A stretch of DNA of 52,774 nucleotides from a virus (taxonomy: Duplodnaviria; Caudoviricetes), in IMG/VR virus record IMGVR_UViG_3300025679_000009, positions 1 to 52,774 of that record; one strand, written 5' to 3'. Of the stretch, positions 53-52,382 are shown piece after piece. Made by a program: the position numbers and the translations under genes. The notes beneath the pieces are model-generated. The model saw nothing but the letters and a program-made list of their open reading frames with translations, had not been told where the DNA came from and ran no database searches. Within the stretch, counting starts at the first letter, position 1. Each line of letters begins with the position of its first letter.

Positions 53-129
53 GGGGGCGTAGCTCAGTTGGTTAGAGCGCTGCCCTGTCACGGCAGAGGC
101 CGCGGGTTCGAGTCCCGTCGCTCCCGCCA
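53..129 (+). tRNA. tRNA-Asp(GTC), prophage integration target
   Basis: Acceptor stem GGGGGCG/CGCTCCC, D arm, anticodon arm CTGCC-CT-GTC-AC-GGCAG, GGTTCGAGTCC T loop, encoded CCA. Confidence 0.97.
78..129 (+). repeat. attL core (52 bp)
   Basis: Identical to 52269-52320. Confidence 0.95.
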
Positions 130-153: not shown

Positions 154-498
154 TTAGATAACCCCCTCGGCTTGATTCGACTCATCGTCCCCCGAGCGAT
201 TCGACTCTTGGTTAGAAAGCTGCGCGGGCCCGTCGGTAAAACCGACCGCTCCGAAGTAATCCGGCGTCACGTGGTCGCCGAAGACCCAGCGGTCGCCTAT
301 GCGATTGCGCACGGTCACGATGTGGGTGTCCCATCCGATCCGCGCGTCGAAGCCGTAAGGCGACACCCTCACGTCCTCGTTTGAAACCGGCAGGGCAAGT
401 TCCTGGGCTAGGTGCGCGACCAGCGCCTCTCGGGACGGTAATTCGATCGCCTCGCGCATAGCGTCTGCGAGCGATCCTCTTTGTGGCCGGTACTTCAC
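154..498 (-). CDS. hypothetical phage protein
   Basis: GTG start overlaps integrase stop; protein-like composition. Confidence 0.6.
   Translation of the reverse strand: MKYRPQRGSLADAMREAIELPSREALVAHLAQELALPVSNEDVRVSPYGFDARIGWDTHIVTVRNRIGDRWVFGDHVTPDYFGAVGFTDGPAQLSNQESNRSGDDESNQAEGVI
174..207. promoter_or_regulatory. putative integrase arm-type sites at attL (GATTCGACTC x2)
   Basis: 10-mer at 174-183 and 198-207; its reverse complement occurs twice inside attR. Confidence 0.65.
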
Positions 499-1778
499 TG
501 GCTGCCTCCCTCCCGCAGCTTGTCACGGCCACGCACGCGCGCGGCGTCGGCGAGGCGGATGAGCGTCGCGTCCTGGCGCATCGCCGGCATGTAGGTGTCG
601 TGCAGCTTCGCGTCCGACTCGATGTTGTTGGCCAGCTTGCGCCCAAGGGCGGCGGTCGTGACGCCGCCGAGCTCGGCCTCTTTGGCGCCGGAGCGGCGGA
701 AGTCGGCGAGCTTGCGGGTGTCGCCGGGAAACTCGGCCGCCACCACGTCGCGGAAGTCGCGCCCGAGCTTGTCCTTGCTGTAGGCCTGCGGCAGCCAGCG
801 CCGGCCGCCCTTCGGTCCAGGCGCGGCGCCTGCGGTGCGGAACATCGGGATCGTGTCGATGACCTGCGCCGGCAACAGGCTTGTGCGGTAAAGCTCGATC
901 AGGCTCTGCGCGCGCTTGGAGAGCGTGCCGATCGCCGCCTTGCCGGTCTTGGCGCGCTGCAGCTCAAAGAACGGCCCCTGGGCGTCGCCGCGCATCTGTG
1001 CGCGCGTCAGGGTGCGGACGTCGACCGGCGACAGGCTTGTGTCCCAGGCGGTCGCCATGATGCAGGCGAGGCCCTTCAGGTCCATGCGCCAGGCGCGCTT
1101 GACCAGGCGCACGGCCTCGCCTTCGCGCCAGACCGCGGTGCGCGGCGTCGGTGTCTTGCGCCGGATGCCGAGCGACGGGTCCGCCCTCGAGTCACAATAT
1201 TTGCCGCCGGCGGGCCGGTTGATCGTGCCGGCGACCTTCCACAGCGCCCGCCAGATCTTCATGACCATGTAGGCCTCGCTGACGCCGATCGTCTCGAGGA
1301 GGCCTTTGATCTCGCCGCCGTCGCCGCAATACCAGAGGTCGATGTCCTCGAGGCCGATGGTCGGCGGGTCGACGTCGCCGAACACCGGCTCGATCTGGCG
1401 CCAGCCGCGCGCCCAGTTGTCGCGCGTGCCTTTGGCTTTTCCCTTAAAGGCGCCGGTCTGCCGGTAGCGCTCGTAGGCCTCGCCCAGGCTGTTCGGCGGA
1501 AACACGCGGACGAGCTGATTGAGCTTCGGCACGCTCTCGCCGGCACCGTGCGTGGCCTTCGCGGCGTCCCATTTGGCGTTCCAGCTCTGCGCGATCGACC
1601 AGGCGCGCGGGCCGTCCTGGCCGCAGTCGACCAGCGCAAAGCCGAGCTTCGCCATCAGCGTCGGCTCGATCTTCTTTGTCGTTGGATCGCGCCGCGCCAG
1701 ACACGGCGCCCAATAGCCCCACTTCGGGCGGCCTTCATGCTGGCGAGTGACGTAGTAGCGGATTTTCACGTTACCCAC
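495..1778 (-). CDS. int: phage integrase, divergent tyrosine recombinase
   Basis: Adjacent to attL; RAKTG lysine motif, DFRRSG box, C-terminal Tyr (HDTY); 427 aa. Confidence 0.8.
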   Translation of the reverse strand: MGNVKIRYYVTRQHEGRPKWGYWAPCLARRDPTTKKIEPTLMAKLGFALVDCGQDGPRAWSIAQSWNAKWDAAKATHGAGESVPKLNQLVRVFPPNSLGEAYERYRQTGAFKGKAKGTRDNWARGWRQIEPVFGDVDPPTIGLEDIDLWYCGDGGEIKGLLETIGVSEAYMVMKIWRALWKVAGTINRPAGGKYCDSRADPSLGIRRKTPTPRTAVWREGEAVRLVKRAWRMDLKGLACIMATAWDTSLSPVDVRTLTRAQMRGDAQGPFFELQRAKTGKAAIGTLSKRAQSLIELYRTSLLPAQVIDTIPMFRTAGAAPGPKGGRRWLPQAYSKDKLGRDFRDVVAAEFPGDTRKLADFRRSGAKEAELGGVTTAALGRKLANNIESDAKLHDTYMPAMRQDATLIRLADAARVRGRDKLREGGSQ

Positions 1779-3263: not shown

Positions 3264-3482
3264 TCAGCCTCGCCGGTAGTGCGGATAGAGCCGCTTGATA
3301 TCCTCGCGGCAGAACCCGTGCGCGGCGAGGACGAGCAGGATGTAGGCGTCCGGCATGTCGCGATGCAGATAGCGGCGGCAGACGCGTTCGAGGCGGCGCG
3401 CTTCGGCTGCCTCTCGGCGATACAGATCCCGCTCGCTGGTCCGCTGCGCGACGTCCGTTTGATCAATCAGAAGTCCTGACAT
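3264..3482 (-). CDS. hypothetical protein
   Basis: ORF from MSGLLID in leftward operon. Confidence 0.45.
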   Translation of the reverse strand: MSGLLIDQTDVAQRTSERDLYRREAAEARRLERVCRRYLHRDMPDAYILLVLAAHGFCREDIKRLYPHYRRG

Positions 3483-6914: not shown

Positions 6915-7237
6915 GTGGCACGCACATTGCTACGCGCGGGCGCGGGCGGGACGGCTTACTCGAAACCTACATGCTGGCGCTGGGGATGCTGTCGTGAAGG
7001 CAGCCGGGCGCCAACCGTTTGCGTCGGTGCGGGCCGCGATCTGCGGCCGCCTGCAGCGGGGCCGAGGGTCGCCGCCGCAGGTCTCATCCGCTAAACGCAC
7101 CGACGTTGATCGGCCTCGCCCGGAGACGCTTTGCCTCGTCGGTGCGGGCGAGGCCGGTCGCGTACTTCTGATCCTGGTCGCGACGCGCGCCGGTCAGACG
7201 GCACAGCCTCCGTAAGGCCGCCCCAGGATGAGCTTCA

Positions 7238-46802: not shown

Positions 46803-47404
46803 TCTGGCAATCTGGGTTTGCCGGCGATCGGGACCATCTTGCCCGGGTAGGTGCCCGCCTCGAGGCATAGCACTCCGCCTGCGACATTGGCTGGAGCGCT
46901 TGCCTCGCCATCGTCCACGACGGCGACAACGATCGCTGTCTTCTGCGGCCAGTGCCAGAAGCCCTGGAAGCCGCGCGCGGGCACCGGCGCGTCGAAGGGC
47001 TGCAGATCGGTGAGGGGCCACGCCCAGTTGAAGTCGCCGCGATCGCTGTCGTGCGGCAGACCGGCGAAGATCGTGCCGGCATTACGTGGCTTGCCGAGCA
47101 CCGCGGTGCCGAGGCCGGCGGCGAGCGGCAGGCCTCGATACTTGTGCGCCGCGCGCACGCGCTCGAGCAGCTGCCGGGCGACGTCGACGACGAGGCCGGT
47201 CATGTCGTCGTCGGCGCCGAGCCGGCGCAGCAGGTCCTCGACCTCGGCCGGCTTGATTGGCCGCGCGCCGGCGTGGATCACGACACGCTCGCCGATCGCC
47301 GGCGCGTTGGCGTACTGCAGGAAGCTCTTCGGCCTGAACTCGAAGGGCTTGGCGCCGACCATGATCAGCGACGCCCACGGCTGCCAGATGGTGATCGCCT
47401 TCAT
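46799..47404 (-). CDS. ASCH-domain protein
   Basis: MKAITIWQPWASLI..GAK.FE.R...IHAG...PVPARG.QGFW.W. Confidence 0.88.
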   Translation of the reverse strand: MKAITIWQPWASLIMVGAKPFEFRPKSFLQYANAPAIGERVVIHAGARPIKPAEVEDLLRRLGADDDMTGLVVDVARQLLERVRAAHKYRGLPLAAGLGTAVLGKPRNAGTIFAGLPHDSDRGDFNWAWPLTDLQPFDAPVPARGFQGFWHWPQKTAIVVAVVDDGEASAPANVAGGVLCLEAGTYPGKMVPIAGKPRLPE

Positions 47405-49203
47405 GCTGCCAGCCTCTCGCTCTCCACGATCCAGTCCTGCAGCTGCACGAGGCCCTTCGAGGGATAGTCGACCAGGTCCATGCCCTTCAGTTCGGAGAGG
47501 CGGTCTTTGATGTTGCTGCCGTCCGGAGCCCAATTTAGGTGTTGCGCGAGGACGGCGCGCTCAACGGGACCGCGCGGGAAGGCGAGCAGCGCGTCGAACA
47601 GTGTGGTCTGCGGTCCCGTGAGCACCGCGCGGATCCCGTCAATGACGGAGCCGCTCATGTCGGGATCCGGCGCGATCGCCGCGCCCTCGTCGGTGAAGCT
47701 CACAAAGCCCTCGCGCGGATAAAACACGAGGCCTTTGCCCTTCAGCTCGGACAAGCGGTCCTTCAGGTTGCTGCCGGTCGGCTTCCAGCGGCAGATGGCC
47801 GCGACCTGCCGGCGGTTGGGTTGGTCGTTGCCCATGTTCTTCCACCAAGCCAGCGCGCGCAGGAGCGCGATCTGCGGGTTCGTCAGGACGCCGGTGATCT
47901 CGTCGGCGACGGCGATCGGGGTAGCCGGCTTGGCATAGGACGGTGTTTGGGGCACGACGCTTGGCATGGAGCGGGGCACAACAGCGGCCGGCGCCGGCTG
48001 ATACTCGATCGCGTCCTGCAGCTTCGGACGGGCCCGGGCGGATTGCTCCGCTGCGGTGAAAAACGCATCGAGCGGCCGCAGCTTCTCGCGCAGGTCCTTG
48101 AAGAACTGCAGCTGCGCGTCCTTGATCTGCTTCTCGGCCGCGGCCGAGAGCTTCTTGCGCGCCTGCTCGAAGCCGCGCTTCTCCGCTGCCTCGAGTGCGG
48201 GCTTGTCGGCGACCGGCTTGGCGGGGGCCTTGGCTGCCGCCGATTGCACCTGGCGCTCGAGCTTCGCCCGCTCTGCCTTTAGCCCGGCGATCTCGGCCCG
48301 CAATTTCTTCGGATCGTTTGCCTTCGCTTCCTCTTCGATCGCCGCGAGCTGGCCTTTGAGCGCACCGACGTCGACGGGTTTGAGCGCCGCCGTGCGCTTC
48401 TGCTTCTCGCCGCGCTTCGGTGTGCGCGAGGAATCGAACGTTTCCTTTTGCGGAAACTTCGCGGTGCCGAGCACGCCGCGGCCGGGCAGCCACACGACGC
48501 CCTGGCCGACTTCCATCGCCGGCAGGGCGTCCTTGATCTCGCGGCCCTGCGCCTTGTCCGCCTGGCCCTCGATCCAGCTGTCGAGCGCGTCGCGATCCTG
48601 CGATGACGTGAGTTTGAACGCGATCAGGCCGTCGACCTGGCTGAGCACGTTTTTGTTGAGCACGGCCGGGCGCTGCGAGATCAGCCACGGGATGAAGCCT
48701 TTGACGCGGCCGCGGCGGACGATGTTCTCCATGTGGCCGAGCAGCGTTTCGTCGCCGCCGGCGGGCTTCTGCGGCGCGAACAGATCGGCCTCGTCGACGA
48801 TCAGATGGAACGGCTCGCCGGTGGCCTTGCGATAGAGCGTGTCGAGGAAGGCCGTCATGAAGCGGCGCTCGGCGGATTTGGAGCCGAGCTCGCGCAGGTC
48901 GATGATGCAGCTCTCCGCCATCGTCGCCGCCGTCTCGCCGATCAGTGCGCCGGCGTGCTCGGTCAACGGCAAGTCGCCGCGCGGGCCGCCGAAGATGACG
49001 ACGTTGAACGGCGAGGCGTGCTTGCCGTCGGCGGTGAGGCGCAGGCCCCACCACACCCCAAGCGGATCGACGATGACGACGCGCGCCTTCTTGCTCAGGA
49101 GGCGCTCGACCGCGACGCCGGCGTTGTAGGTCTTGCCGCTTCCTGAGGTGCCTAGGAAGCCGAGACGATCGTCCAGCGCTGCACTCGGGATGGGGTGGCT
49201 CAC
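47401..49203 (-). CDS. HerA/DUF87-like ATPase with C-terminal tandem winged helices
   Basis: GTSGSGKT Walker A, IVDP.G, LIVDEAD Walker B, RRGR, SQRPA; GTG start coupled to upstream stop. Confidence 0.85.
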   Translation of the reverse strand: MSHPIPSAALDDRLGFLGTSGSGKTYNAGVAVERLLSKKARVVIVDPLGVWWGLRLTADGKHASPFNVVIFGGPRGDLPLTEHAGALIGETAATMAESCIIDLRELGSKSAERRFMTAFLDTLYRKATGEPFHLIVDEADLFAPQKPAGGDETLLGHMENIVRRGRVKGFIPWLISQRPAVLNKNVLSQVDGLIAFKLTSSQDRDALDSWIEGQADKAQGREIKDALPAMEVGQGVVWLPGRGVLGTAKFPQKETFDSSRTPKRGEKQKRTAALKPVDVGALKGQLAAIEEEAKANDPKKLRAEIAGLKAERAKLERQVQSAAAKAPAKPVADKPALEAAEKRGFEQARKKLSAAAEKQIKDAQLQFFKDLREKLRPLDAFFTAAEQSARARPKLQDAIEYQPAPAAVVPRSMPSVVPQTPSYAKPATPIAVADEITGVLTNPQIALLRALAWWKNMGNDQPNRRQVAAICRWKPTGSNLKDRLSELKGKGLVFYPREGFVSFTDEGAAIAPDPDMSGSVIDGIRAVLTGPQTTLFDALLAFPRGPVERAVLAQHLNWAPDGSNIKDRLSELKGMDLVDYPSKGLVQLQDWIVESERLAA

Positions 49204-50873
49204 GTGCGCACCGCCTCGCGATAATGTTTGGGACTGATGCCGTAGCTCGCTGCGATCACCTCCGCCGGCGTGTCGCCGCGCATGGCCCCGAGGTGGAATT
49301 TCCGCCTGGTGCCGTCCGGCTCGAGCGATCCGTTGAGCACTTCGACGACTCGTAGGCGATCGCCGGCGACGTCGAGATCGAGCAGTCGCCGCGGCTGGCC
49401 GTGTAGCTCGTCGGCGGCGATCACCTTCGCGTGCCGCTCGGCGAGATATCGTTCGAAGCCGAAGACCTCGAGCATCATGCGGCGAAGTTCGGCATTGCGC
49501 TCCCCCTCGATCGCGGAGGGCGTCAGCCTTGCGCGCTCGCGGATGATCCATTCGTGCGAGCGCGGGATCTGCATTCCGTGCCAGAAATACAGGTCCCAGC
49601 CGTCGCTATAGGCGATCGCGGGGCCGCTCTCGGCGTGCAGACGTCCCGCGGCGTTGCGCTTCAGCAGTCGCGGTCGGTCAGACACCATCGCGTAGTCGGT
49701 GTTGAGCATGTACGGGCCGCCCTGGCTGTGGGCGACCTCGTAGGCCGCGAGTTCGTCGGCAAGGTCGATCTCGAGGCCGCAGACGTCGCGGAAGAACGTC
49801 GTCCAGGATGCCCACCAACACCACAGATTGCCGCCCGAGTCGCCGGCATAGGCCGCGCACCGCAGGAGGAAGAGCGCGTCCTGATCGACCGCGCTGCGAA
49901 CCGCGCTGCGAACCGCGCTGCCAACCGCGCTGTCGACCGCGCTGCGAACCGCGCTGCGAACCGCGCTGCGAACCGCGCTGCGAACCGCGCTGCCAACCGC
50001 GCTGCCAACCGCGCTGCCAACCGCGCTGCGAACCGCGCTGCGAACCGCGCTGCCAACCGCGCTGCGAACCGCGCTGCCAACCGCGCTGTCGACCGCGCTG
50101 CCAACCGCGCTGCCAACCGCGCTGCGAACCGCGCTGCCAACCGCGCTGTCGACCGCGCTGCCAACCGCGCTGCCAACCGCGCTGTCGACCGCGCTGCGAA
50201 CCGCGCTGTCGACCGCGCTGCCAACCGCGCTGTCGACCGCGCTGCCAACCGCGCTGTCGACCGCGCTGCGAACCGCGCTGTCGACCGCGCTGCGAACCGC
50301 GCTGCGAACCGCGCTGTCGACCGCGCTGCGAACCGCGCTGCCAACCGCGCTGTCGACCGCGCTGCGAACCGCGCTGTCGACCGCGCTGTCGACCGCGCTG
50401 TCGACCGCGCTGCCAACCGCGCTGTCGACCGCGCTGTCGACCGCGCTGCCAACCGCGCTGTCGACCGCGCTGCCAACCGCGCTGCGAACCGCGCTGTCGA
50501 CCGCGCTGCGAACCGCGCTGTCGACCGCGCTGCCAACCGCGCTGTCGACCGCGCTGTCGACCGCGCTGTCGACCGCGCTGCGAACCGCGCTGCCAACCGC
50601 GCTGCGAGCAGGGAAGCCGTGCCGCAGCGCGTGGATGGCGCCACCGGCGACGCCGAATGCGATGCGTAGCGTGAACGGCGACGGCACGAAGATCACTGCC
50701 TTTGGTGGCCGCAGATTGGCCCGCTGATACATGATGCGGATCGCAGCATCGACCTCCTTCCGTTCTTTTGCCGACATCGGATCGGTCGAGAGACCGATCC
50801 TGATCCATTTGTCGCGCCACTCGGGCATGCGCGCGGCGTGTGCCGGCGTGAGGCTGTCAATCCGTTTCACCAT
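49200..50873 (-). CDS. DUF6745-like protein with 60 SAV[D/G/R] repeats
   Basis: C-terminal SDRP...GRLH...GPAI.YSDGW..Y.WHG...I..E.NAELRR; N-terminal W...GLST. Confidence 0.8.
   Translation of the reverse strand: MVKRIDSLTPAHAARMPEWRDKWIRIGLSTDPMSAKERKEVDAAIRIMYQRANLRPPKAVIFVPSPFTLRIAFGVAGGAIHALRHGFPARSAVGSAVRSAVDSAVDSAVDSAVGSAVDSAVRSAVDSAVRSAVGSAVDSAVGSAVDSAVDSAVGSAVDSAVDSAVDSAVRSAVDSAVGSAVRSAVDSAVRSAVRSAVDSAVRSAVDSAVGSAVDSAVGSAVDSAVRSAVDSAVGSAVGSAVDSAVGSAVRSAVGSAVGSAVDSAVGSAVRSAVGSAVRSAVRSAVGSAVGSAVGSAVRSAVRSAVRSAVRSAVDSAVGSAVRSAVRSAVDQDALFLLRCAAYAGDSGGNLWCWWASWTTFFRDVCGLEIDLADELAAYEVAHSQGGPYMLNTDYAMVSDRPRLLKRNAAGRLHAESGPAIAYSDGWDLYFWHGMQIPRSHEWIIRERARLTPSAIEGERNAELRRMMLEVFGFERYLAERHAKVIAADELHGQPRRLLDLDVAGDRLRVVEVLNGSLEPDGTRRKFHLGAMRGDTPAEVIAASYGISPKHYREAVRT
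49884..50603 (-). repeat. coding tandem array, 60 x 12 bp, three alleles
   Basis: AGCGCGGTCGAC (D, 22; last copy ends GAT), AGCGCGGTTGGC (G, 19), AGCGCGGTTCGC (R, 19). Confidence 0.97.
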
Positions 50874-51420: not shown

Positions 51421-51750
51421 TCAATTCTCGGGGGGGGGGGTATACTCGCCTTCACGCAACCTACGGTTAATTCGATCTTCGGTGGCTTGGCGCTCCGCGC
51501 GCCGCAACATCAGCGACTCGGCCCGCAGCGCACCCTCCCGCGTAAGCGAGTAGAAGGGGCCTTCGGGTCGGCCGCGCTGGATGTTTTGCCGGTGCCAGAT
51601 GTTCAGCAGGCCGAGGCGGCAGAGGCCGCCTGCGAGTTCGCGCACGCCGGAGAGCAAAGTGACCGGCATTGATGCACCGCCGCAACGGAGCAGGTGAACG
51701 ACAATGTCGATTTCTTGCCGCGTGAGCGGCCGGTCGGTCGTGCGCGTCAC
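51421..51750 (-). CDS. wHTH-like hypothetical protein
   Basis: LCRLGLL...FYSLTREG; GGAG RBS, GTG start. Confidence 0.55.
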   Translation of the reverse strand: MTRTTDRPLTRQEIDIVVHLLRCGGASMPVTLLSGVRELAGGLCRLGLLNIWHRQNIQRGRPEGPFYSLTREGALRAESLMLRRAERQATEDRINRRLREGEYTPPPEN

Positions 51751-51763
51751 GCGGCACTCCCGA

Positions 51764-51878
51764 TGTCAGAATCACACCTCGCTTTTACCCGGGACTTGCC
51801 CCGGTTGCGCCGGGGTTTGTCAGAATCGCAGGTAGCAATATCAATGGGTTGATGCAGGTTCGAATCCTGCTGCCCGGA
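51764..51878 (+). other. relic att arm: two direct repeats, IHF consensus and a tRNA T-arm fragment
   Basis: TGTCAGAATC at 51764 and 51818; TATCAATGGGTTG at 51839-51851; GCAGG-TTCGAAT-CCTGC at 51854-51870. Confidence 0.55.
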
Positions 51879-52172
51879 CGCCTTCATCCGGTGCCTCCTT
51901 GCACTGCTCGCGCGATTGCTGAGAGCGTCGCGCGTCGATCGAGACGCCCCGGATGATCCGCTCGAACCGCGGCGTAGATCGTCACGGTGAGCGCACCGAC
52001 GGCGACCTCGAAAGCGGCGCCCCCGCGTACGCGCACTCCCAGGCGTTTCACTGCCGCCAGGAACGCGTCATGCGTCAGGTCGCGTTTGGCGCGCAGCCGA
52101 TGCTCGGGCGCTGGCAGGGCGAACAGCGTCAGCTGACGCGGCGATCGACGACGGCCTTGCGCTCGAGATCGT

Positions 52173-52234: not shown

Positions 52235-52268
52235 GTTGCTAGAAAAACCTTGCGAAGACCCCCGATGA

Positions 52269-52320
52269 CGCTGCCCTGTCACGGCAGAGGCCGCGGGTTC
52301 GAGTCCCGTCGCTCCCGCCA
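52269..52320 (+). repeat. attR core (52-bp duplicate of tRNA-Asp 3' part)
   Basis: CGCTGCCCTGTCACGG...CGCTCCCGCCA identical to 78-129. Confidence 0.95.
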
Positions 52321-52382
52321 TTCTTTCAATGACTTAGTCCCGTATTCGGGTGCCGTATTCGCACCCTCCGAGGGGCGTCACA

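Follow-up and report, generated by a model that had tools for sequence, protein, structure and literature searches.

The DNA analysed here is the virus record IMGVR_UViG_3300025679_000009 (Duplodnaviria; Caudoviricetes) at its full length of 52,774 nucleotides (nt), referred to below as the window. Its virus genes comprise terminase, head-tail adaptor, tail and endolysin genes, and a pair of 52-nt direct repeats identifies it as a prophage that has inserted at tRNA-Asp. At about 1.4 kb from the right prophage end, within a block of genes transcribed leftward, lies a gene for a DUF6745 protein of 557 amino acids (aa), in which residues 91-330 form 60 uninterrupted SAVx units encoded by 60 x 12 nt on the minus strand (49884-50603; Table 1). 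The family model PF20530 (DUF6745) matches residues 378-554 with an E-value of 4.1e-35 and 121.4 bits, the gathering cut-off being 27, and reaches 123.5 bits in a six-frame search of the window. The fourth residue of the unit is Asp (D) in 22 units, Gly (G) in 19 and Arg (R) in 19. At the DNA level, SAVD is written AGCGCGGTCGAC in 21 copies and AGCGCGGTCGAT in one copy, which is the last unit of the array, while SAVG is written AGCGCGGTTGGC in 19 copies and SAVR AGCGCGGTTCGC in 19. Tandem Repeats Finder places the array at 49888-50607, and a two-unit pattern scan of the window returned 59 matches without a mismatch, every one of them within the array, against a chance expectation of 1.6. An array of 60 SAVx units with D, G or R as the variable residue had been described in a first-pass annotation made from the sequence by a model; our parse reproduces it exactly, together with the order of the units and the counts in the two halves (D15/R8/G7 in the first, G12/R11/D7 in the second).

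The order of the units looks random and is indistinguishable from a shuffle, in agreement with the aperiodicity claimed for it: the longest repeated block spans six units, where shuffles average 6.15, every one of the 27 possible unit triplets is present, and in a lag test on unit order no lag stands out once 15 tests are allowed for. Adjacent identical units are fewer than in shuffles in about 19 of 29 arrays by our reading, a difference that is not significant and was left aside. The shift from acidic to basic units that had also been claimed is correct as a count of halves but weak and marginal as a trend (Spearman rho 0.30, p 0.019; D versus R positions, p 0.035; Kruskal-Wallis p 0.057; rho 0.35, p 0.007 in a second script whose segmenter keeps 59 units), and it is ruled out as a family trait by 27 other arrays of at least 15 units, where rho is positive in 7 and negative in 20 and the one p below 0.05 has the opposite sign. 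The silent difference in the Val codon is fully linked to the allele, GTC accompanying D in 22 of 22 units and GTT accompanying G or R in 38 of 38. We therefore conclude that alleles have multiplied through the copying of entire units rather than through repeated point mutation. The codon GTT, found in 38 of the 60 units, makes up 9% of the Val codons in the other called genes of the window. Neither a folded-back array with D opposite R (hairpin charge pairing at 20 fold centres, none significant) nor salt bridges between adjacent units (RD and DR neighbours at 15 of 59 positions, about 14 being expected by our own arithmetic) was borne out. Matches inside the array to DUF826, to phrog_22557, 568, 311, 36210, 167 and 3416 and to PADLOC REase_II were dismissed as compositional, and MSCRAMM SD-repeat models were dismissed because their scores fall far below their cut-offs. 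Ten of the 12 positions of the Asp unit AGCGCGGTCGAC are self-complementary (GCGC and the palindrome GTCGAC), against 8 in the Arg unit and 6 in the Gly unit, and consecutive D units could fold into hairpins in single-stranded DNA.

Arrays of this kind recur throughout the DUF6745 phage proteins, and that of the window is an extreme case. With the C-terminal part as query we found 88 homologues of 307-634 aa. In 46 of them a near-perfect array of period 4 occupies the site used in the window protein and begins at residues 80-110; family cores include SAV, GAV, QQV, SNV, AAT, AQV, DQL and QL. An exhaustive search puts the family at 7115 representative clusters at E ≤ 0.001 and at 3441 at E ≤ 1e-10. 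Among 218 members examined (the 88 homologues and 130 new ones among 150 listed), 75 have arrays, with a median of about 10 units and a range from 3 to 76, and only one, the 76-unit protein P0010 of Hansschlegelia zhihuaiae, is longer than the window's; the variable position is mostly R, G, D, W, E, S or Y. Set against these members, the window array stands out by its 60 units, its three residue alleles and the absence of any imperfect unit. The window protein shares with the family the N-terminal part of about 90 aa and the near-invariant core residues: in an alignment of 72 sequences, A1 (the window protein, that of the related virus contig L002 and 70 of the 88 homologues, 18 having been thinned by eye before any result), H413, W431, R464 and G521 are invariant and 42 positions are at least 90% conserved, including L8, Y49, S65 and P66. 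Five long members of 583-861 aa (P0139, P0149, P0150, P0128 and P0201) contain two or three DUF6745 stretches in tandem. A lead to leucine-rich repeats, from one cyanobacterial Atlas cluster, was dropped since none of 10 long family members scanned has such repeats, and an Atlas search of named clusters gave no usable match. In locus L009 (1339-2397), SSGA/SSGT units change to DQLG/QLRG units in mid-array and the upstream part is unlike the family N-terminus; this array seems to hold a frameshift or a sequencing error.

Comparison with relatives at the DNA level reveals how such arrays change. L002 has the same gene order as the window, with identities of 90% in the C-terminal domain, 91% in the 166-aa protein encoded directly upstream and 86% in the ATPase encoded downstream; its array has 10 units, in the order G R R G G G G G G D, and shares the exact G and R alleles of the window as well as the terminal GAT unit. 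The flanking DNA is 75% (N-terminal side) and 86% (C-terminal side) identical, with silent differences at 75 of 318 codons. A scan of metagenomes found nothing closer to the window than L002, L014 being the same contig. Other arrays are likewise built from a few exact alleles: four in the 36 SAV(H/G/R/D) units of L004, five in the at least 23 SAV(G/R/D/A) units of L003, five in the 19 SQV(W/G/E/R) units of L006, and six, five and four in the QL(R/W/G)(D/G) arrays of L007, L008 and L010, which have 16, 23 and 25 units. In nine arrays, that of gp54 of phage Tweety discussed below among them, polymorphism affects 19 of 72 first and second codon positions compared with 3 of 36 third positions; silent sites are all but fixed, and only one or two codons of a unit vary. 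The array of L033 (14712-14867), with at least 13 units, belongs to a protein whose core is 60% identical to the window's and shares its G and R alleles with the window, down to the rare GTT, yet its Asp allele reads GTTGAC where the window has GTCGAC, so that Asp was reached twice; L033 was found with a DNA pattern fixing only AGCGCGGT and the last C, a search that biases part of this comparison. Array nucleotides common to such deeply diverged genes suggest either that genes trade arrays or that the DNA as such is under constraint. Of the nine matches to the DNA pattern, four (L032, L034, L036 and L037, all virus contigs) lie in an unrelated Gly/Val-rich protein of 160 aa that begins SAVG-SAVS-SAVG on the AGCGCGGT core and is not a DUF6745 protein, and L035 falls in a 19-aa frame; these were set aside. 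The rapid reshuffling first proposed for the array thus holds in so far as unit number and composition differ fast between relatives, with 60 units in the window against 10 in L002 at 90% C-domain identity. The whole-unit copying seen in the GTC/GTT linkage also agrees with that proposal. Of the slippage or unequal recombination that it named as the cause, the window array bears no signature in the form of recent block slippage; block duplication was detected in 4 of 29 arrays of at least 15 units (P0010, P0031, P0033 and P0050).

A second property of the arrays lies in the protein. In the hydrophobicity spectra of the 63 inserts of at least 24 aa in alignment A1, the peak falls at 3.9-4.1 residues in 53 and at 3.4-3.75 in 4, and the window array itself peaks at 4.0. 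Because the period is kept at 3.9-4.1 in 14 of 21 degenerate inserts, whose repeats have decayed, we conclude that it reflects a constraint on the protein itself and is not merely a trace of the DNA repeat. The array does not qualify as a canonical coiled coil, which has a hydrophobic period of 3.5 to 3.67, and the single stripe of variable residues on a long helix or right-handed coiled coil that had been envisaged for it fails on geometry, for by our own calculation a residue recurring at every fourth position of a helix with 3.6 residues per turn shifts around the axis by 40 degrees with each unit, and a coiled coil holding a 4.0 period in register needs a supercoil pitch of about 50 Å. AlphaFold2 models the window protein with a mean predicted local distance difference test (pLDDT) score of 77.6, the N- and C-terminal parts being mostly above 90 and the array consisting of broken helices at 43-74. 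For the 357-aa protein of L002 the model reaches a pLDDT of 90.2 and a predicted template modelling (pTM) score of 0.81, and its array appears as a helix (90-101), a loop below 50 pLDDT and another helix (110-126), placed between confident helices; structural alignments, which are weak, run through the array from model residue 5 to 201 and take this stretch as one helical bundle. The models thus predict that the N- and C-terminal parts form one compact core, and we infer that the array is an insertion protruding from it with both ends in the same subdomain. Structure prediction, proposed earlier as a check, has in this way yielded a compact core and, as described next, a contact of the C-terminal tail with a partner, with low confidence for the array. 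A BFVD search returned only other DUF6745 proteins, and the best match of the family profile among PDB sequences had an E-value of 0.18.

The gene directly upstream encodes the 166-aa protein that we refer to as the partner. Of 11 viral and genome loci, 8 have a homologue in the same place and three are cut less than 400 nt from the match, so that it is present in 8 of the 8 such loci with upstream DNA; among 14 new metagenome loci (L015-L028) it was found in 5, most of the others being cut near the match. The motifs GHHH and HxEH are invariant in the partner, which matched no named family and gave only a weak match to phrog_27831 and nothing among PDB sequences at E ≤ 1. The predicted complex of the DUF6745 protein and the partner scores 0.76, whereas the best of three controls scores 0.00; among solved complexes 58 of 80 attain the mark applied to this score, and among mismatched pairs 2 of 110 do, counts that are only rough here because we used our own alignments. 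The runs share at least 79% of contacts, with a partner pLDDT of at least 73. These predictions support binding of the partner to the C-terminal tail of the DUF6745 protein. DUF6745 relatives with shorter or degenerate inserts (PF20530, phrog_31813) have the same N- and C-terminal parts, the same insertion site and the same upstream gene, and most of their inserts have period 4.

In its probable mode of action, the window protein most resembles Tweety gp54 (with Che8 gp57 and PMC gp51 in phrog_3416), an analogy that does not extend to membership in the gp54 family. A 2007 paper describes gp54 as built of 12-bp units with invariant third codon positions and variation at the first and second, states that three phages have 48, 26 and 15 copies of such repeats and suggests selection for variation (PMC2884959), and a 2022 review relates that Tweety mutants escaping the defence by Phrann gp29/gp30 differ in gp54 repeat number, the tuning being thought to act through juxtaposed N- and C-terminal domains (PMC9262239). 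As we read the gene, an N-terminal part of about 140 aa is followed by AA-x-x units (48 according to PMC2884959) and then by 44 aa. Both proteins have a central array of 12-bp tetrapeptide units with near-invariant third positions, both show a random-like unit order, and in both the unit number differs between relatives; gp54, described as lying among the early genes of a temperate phage, can also be likened to the window's prophage gene in its setting. They differ in that gp54 ends in a 44-aa tail instead of the 227-aa DUF6745 part, that its unit has two variable positions instead of one, that its upstream gene is unrelated to the partner and that it belongs to another PHROG (phrog_3416 versus phrog_31813). 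A match of the window protein to phrog_3416 (E 0.00033) covers only array residues 255-334, with no stretch passing alone, and was not taken as membership. The DUF6745 member P0120 uses an SAA core, as in gp54. The gp54-like repeat design is thus, as judged from sequence, present in at least two unrelated phage families.

Other repeat proteins resemble the window array less closely. Variable region 2 of bbp36 of Bordetella phage BMP-1, as described in PMC2884959, is an in-frame tandem element present in 9-20 copies between isolates, in a gene that is non-essential and of unknown role; its element of 24 bp consists of a 19-bp repeat and one of three 5-bp spacers. Some DUF6745 arrays, such as ANLG/SNLR in P0035 and SNVx in P0033, can be read as a pentapeptide-repeat consensus minus one residue. 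The consensus of pentapeptide repeats is A-(D/N)-L-x-x. The period of the arrays is 4.0 and not 5, no pentapeptide Pfam model matched at E ≤ 0.1, and AlphaFold2 renders the DUF6745 array, at low confidence, as helix and not as the beta-helix of pentapeptide repeats, and we therefore rejected this assignment.

Altogether, we favor a model whereby an in-frame run of 12-nt units encodes an insertion that separates two helices of the compact core and would project as an arm. Units would be gained, lost and copied as whole cassettes, which we infer to occur by replication slippage or by unequal recombination between perfect repeats, while selection would hold three codons fixed and let one vary among a few residues. 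The length of the arm and its surface residues could therefore change quickly while the protein stays intact. The DUF6745 protein and its 166-aa partner would act on a protein of the host or of a rival phage, for instance a defence system, and the array would tune this action. We put the chances of such a fast-changing, tuning arm at about even. By analogy with gp54, the DUF6745 protein as a whole probably acts with its partner on a defence system or something similar, with the array as the tuning knob.

A number of results weigh against this model. The unit count and order rest on one short-read assembly of a metagenome-derived contig. The arm is modelled as helix with low confidence, and a strict 4.0 period is hard to reconcile with an ordinary coiled coil or amphipathic helix; Foldseek found nothing in the PDB resembling the window model at E ≤ 0.001, and a wide VIA search with the 357-aa model reached Z 4.1 at best and found no known fold. 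The predicted contacts of the partner fall at residues 342-357 of the 357-aa protein, in the conserved C-terminal tail, and leave the array free. Neither the window array nor 24 of 28 others tested show the duplications of blocks or adjacent units expected from recent slippage. No defence or anti-defence family was matched, and literature searches found no paper that mentions 'DUF6745' or 'PF20530' and none on such arrays. Finally, no homology between the flanks of gp54 and DUF6745 was detected (no Pfam match; BLASTP E 79; hhalign 0.2%, over the repeat only).

If the array were instead a tolerated linker without function, it would grow and shrink by slippage since 12-nt units keep the frame. 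Such neutral expansion would fit the short loop at the insertion site of some homologues (inserts of 8-12 aa in P0058, P0023 and P0038), the low AlphaFold2 confidence in the array and, according to PMC2884959, the frequency of such repeats in unstructured proteins and the existence of phage Llij without the gene. We nevertheless consider it unlikely, as independent lineages hold period-4 arrays with different cores at the same site, a hydrophobic residue recurs every 4.0 positions even in two thirds of the degenerate inserts (14/21), variation is limited to one or two codons while silent sites are near-invariant, Asp arose twice through different alleles, and repeat number has a phenotype in Tweety according to PMC9262239. 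The wide span of array lengths in the family, from 3 to 76 units, and the domain juxtaposition thought to tune gp54 (PMC9262239) would also suit a ruler or spacer that sets the distance between N- and C-terminal domains, and an adjustable ruler was one of the functions first suggested for the array. The models disfavor this suggestion: both are confident on either side of the array, and the predicted single helical bundle and the pTM of the 10-unit relative describe one compact unit with no two domains to be spaced, making a ruler quite improbable. The other function suggested at first, a re-codable recognition surface, stays a candidate. Concentration of variation at a few nucleotides might finally recall a diversity-generating retroelement, or some comparable dedicated machine, that directs mutations to chosen sites. 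We regard this as barely conceivable: no RVT_1 match was found on the record (estimated to be 80% complete) at E ≤ 0.01, no template-like copy of a unit occurs outside the array with three mismatches allowed, and the variable sites are not adenine-specific and form discrete alleles fully linked to a silent site.

The array might also be real and yet mis-built in length and order, from short reads or from merged strains, and a metagenome-derived contig gives reason for caution. The array together with 60 nt of either flank contains 810 31-mers, of which only 369 are distinct. In the run that is probably the source, the contigs built at k=31 break within the array and cannot reveal length variants within one population, the mark of a simple-sequence contingency locus; Logan contigs inside it are pieces of 37-50 nt that leave parts of it without contig cover, and six listed pieces have k-mer depths of 0.56-1.0 (mean 0.75) of the 60-unit prediction. 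Against such an artefact, exact internal repeats reach at most 82 nt and every 91-mer is unique, so that reads or k-mers longer than about 90 nt can resolve the array; both flanks run 31 nt into the array with zero mismatches, in a run that may be the source sample itself and hence is not independent support; array pieces lie at 1.6 to 4.4 times the depth of the flanks, as fits a long array; and arrays of 19-76 units occur in independent assemblies, including the NCBI-named protein of H. zhihuaiae. Runs with a small share hold only short words of the array, which neither confirm nor refute the order. We judge a mis-built array to be very unlikely. Identical multi-unit array words of 37-54 nt (window 49903-50269) are found in two unrelated metagenomes, from a rhizosphere and from mine drainage, without the window's flanks.

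Returning to the tuning arm, Tweety gp54 is so far the single studied phage protein tuned by repeat number, and the window holds the purest and almost the longest version of a gp54-like design, within an unrelated, very large and uncharacterised family of 7115 clusters with a conserved partner that probably binds. If the analogy holds, phages would widely carry a fast mutational dial for conflict with hosts and with other phages, and the length and letters of an array could be read as a record of that conflict. It is tempting to go further and to speculate that the period-4 array is a programmable recognition arm in thousands of phage DUF6745 proteins, written in a small alphabet, rewritten in length and order by cassette copying to match or evade defence or rival-phage proteins, exchanged as whole arrays, matching even at rare silent codons, between cores that are only 60% identical, and folded with a true four-residue period unlike described helix and solenoid classes; we advance this larger proposal as a doubtful though real possibility. 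The strict hydrophobic period of four residues poses a separate question in protein structure, and the frozen silent sites pose one in repeat evolution.

The positions of the gene, its parts and its neighbors are collected in Table 1.

Table 1 The DUF6745 locus and the prophage ends in the window
Feature	Position	Strand	Remark
DUF6745 gene, 557 aa	49200..50873	-	Shine-Dalgarno-like GGAG ahead of ATG
N-terminal conserved part, residues 1-90	50604..50873	-	model pLDDT 78-98 per 10-residue block
C-terminal part, residues 331-557	49200..49883	-	PF20530 match at about 49212-49745; conserved tail is the predicted partner contact
Partner gene, 166 aa	50905..51405	-	directly upstream of DUF6745 gene
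C11 tract (G11 on + strand)	51430..51440	-	24 nt upstream of partner ATG
HerA/FtsK-like ATPase gene	47401..49203	-	GTG start overlaps DUF6745 stop (GTGA)
attL copy, 52-nt perfect direct repeat (tRNA-Asp 3' end)	78..129	+	
attR copy, 52-nt repeat	52269..52320	+	

Host DNA starts at 52321. Beside attL, at the position expected of an integrase, an open reading frame (ORF) of 427 aa (495-1778, minus strand) matched nothing in Pfam, PHROGs or NCBIfam at the thresholds applied. A 91-nt 'tRNA-Phe' called by ARAGORN at 51789-51879 is doubtful, since Rfam (E ≤ 0.01) gives only a tRNA fragment at 52252-52312. Upstream of the DUF6745 gene lie the partner gene and a gene for a 109-aa protein; the HerA/FtsK-like ATPase encoded downstream has a long C-terminal extension and, among the loci compared, is confined to the window and L002, so that it does not belong to the conserved gene pair. 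The C11 tract, situated inside the 3' end of the 109-aa ORF where it encodes PPP, is the only homopolymer of at least 8 nt in the 52.8-kb window. At the corresponding place upstream of the partner gene L002 has C16 (23-38) and the other loci have no such tract; the difference in length between the closest relatives makes it a candidate second hypermutable tract in the operon.

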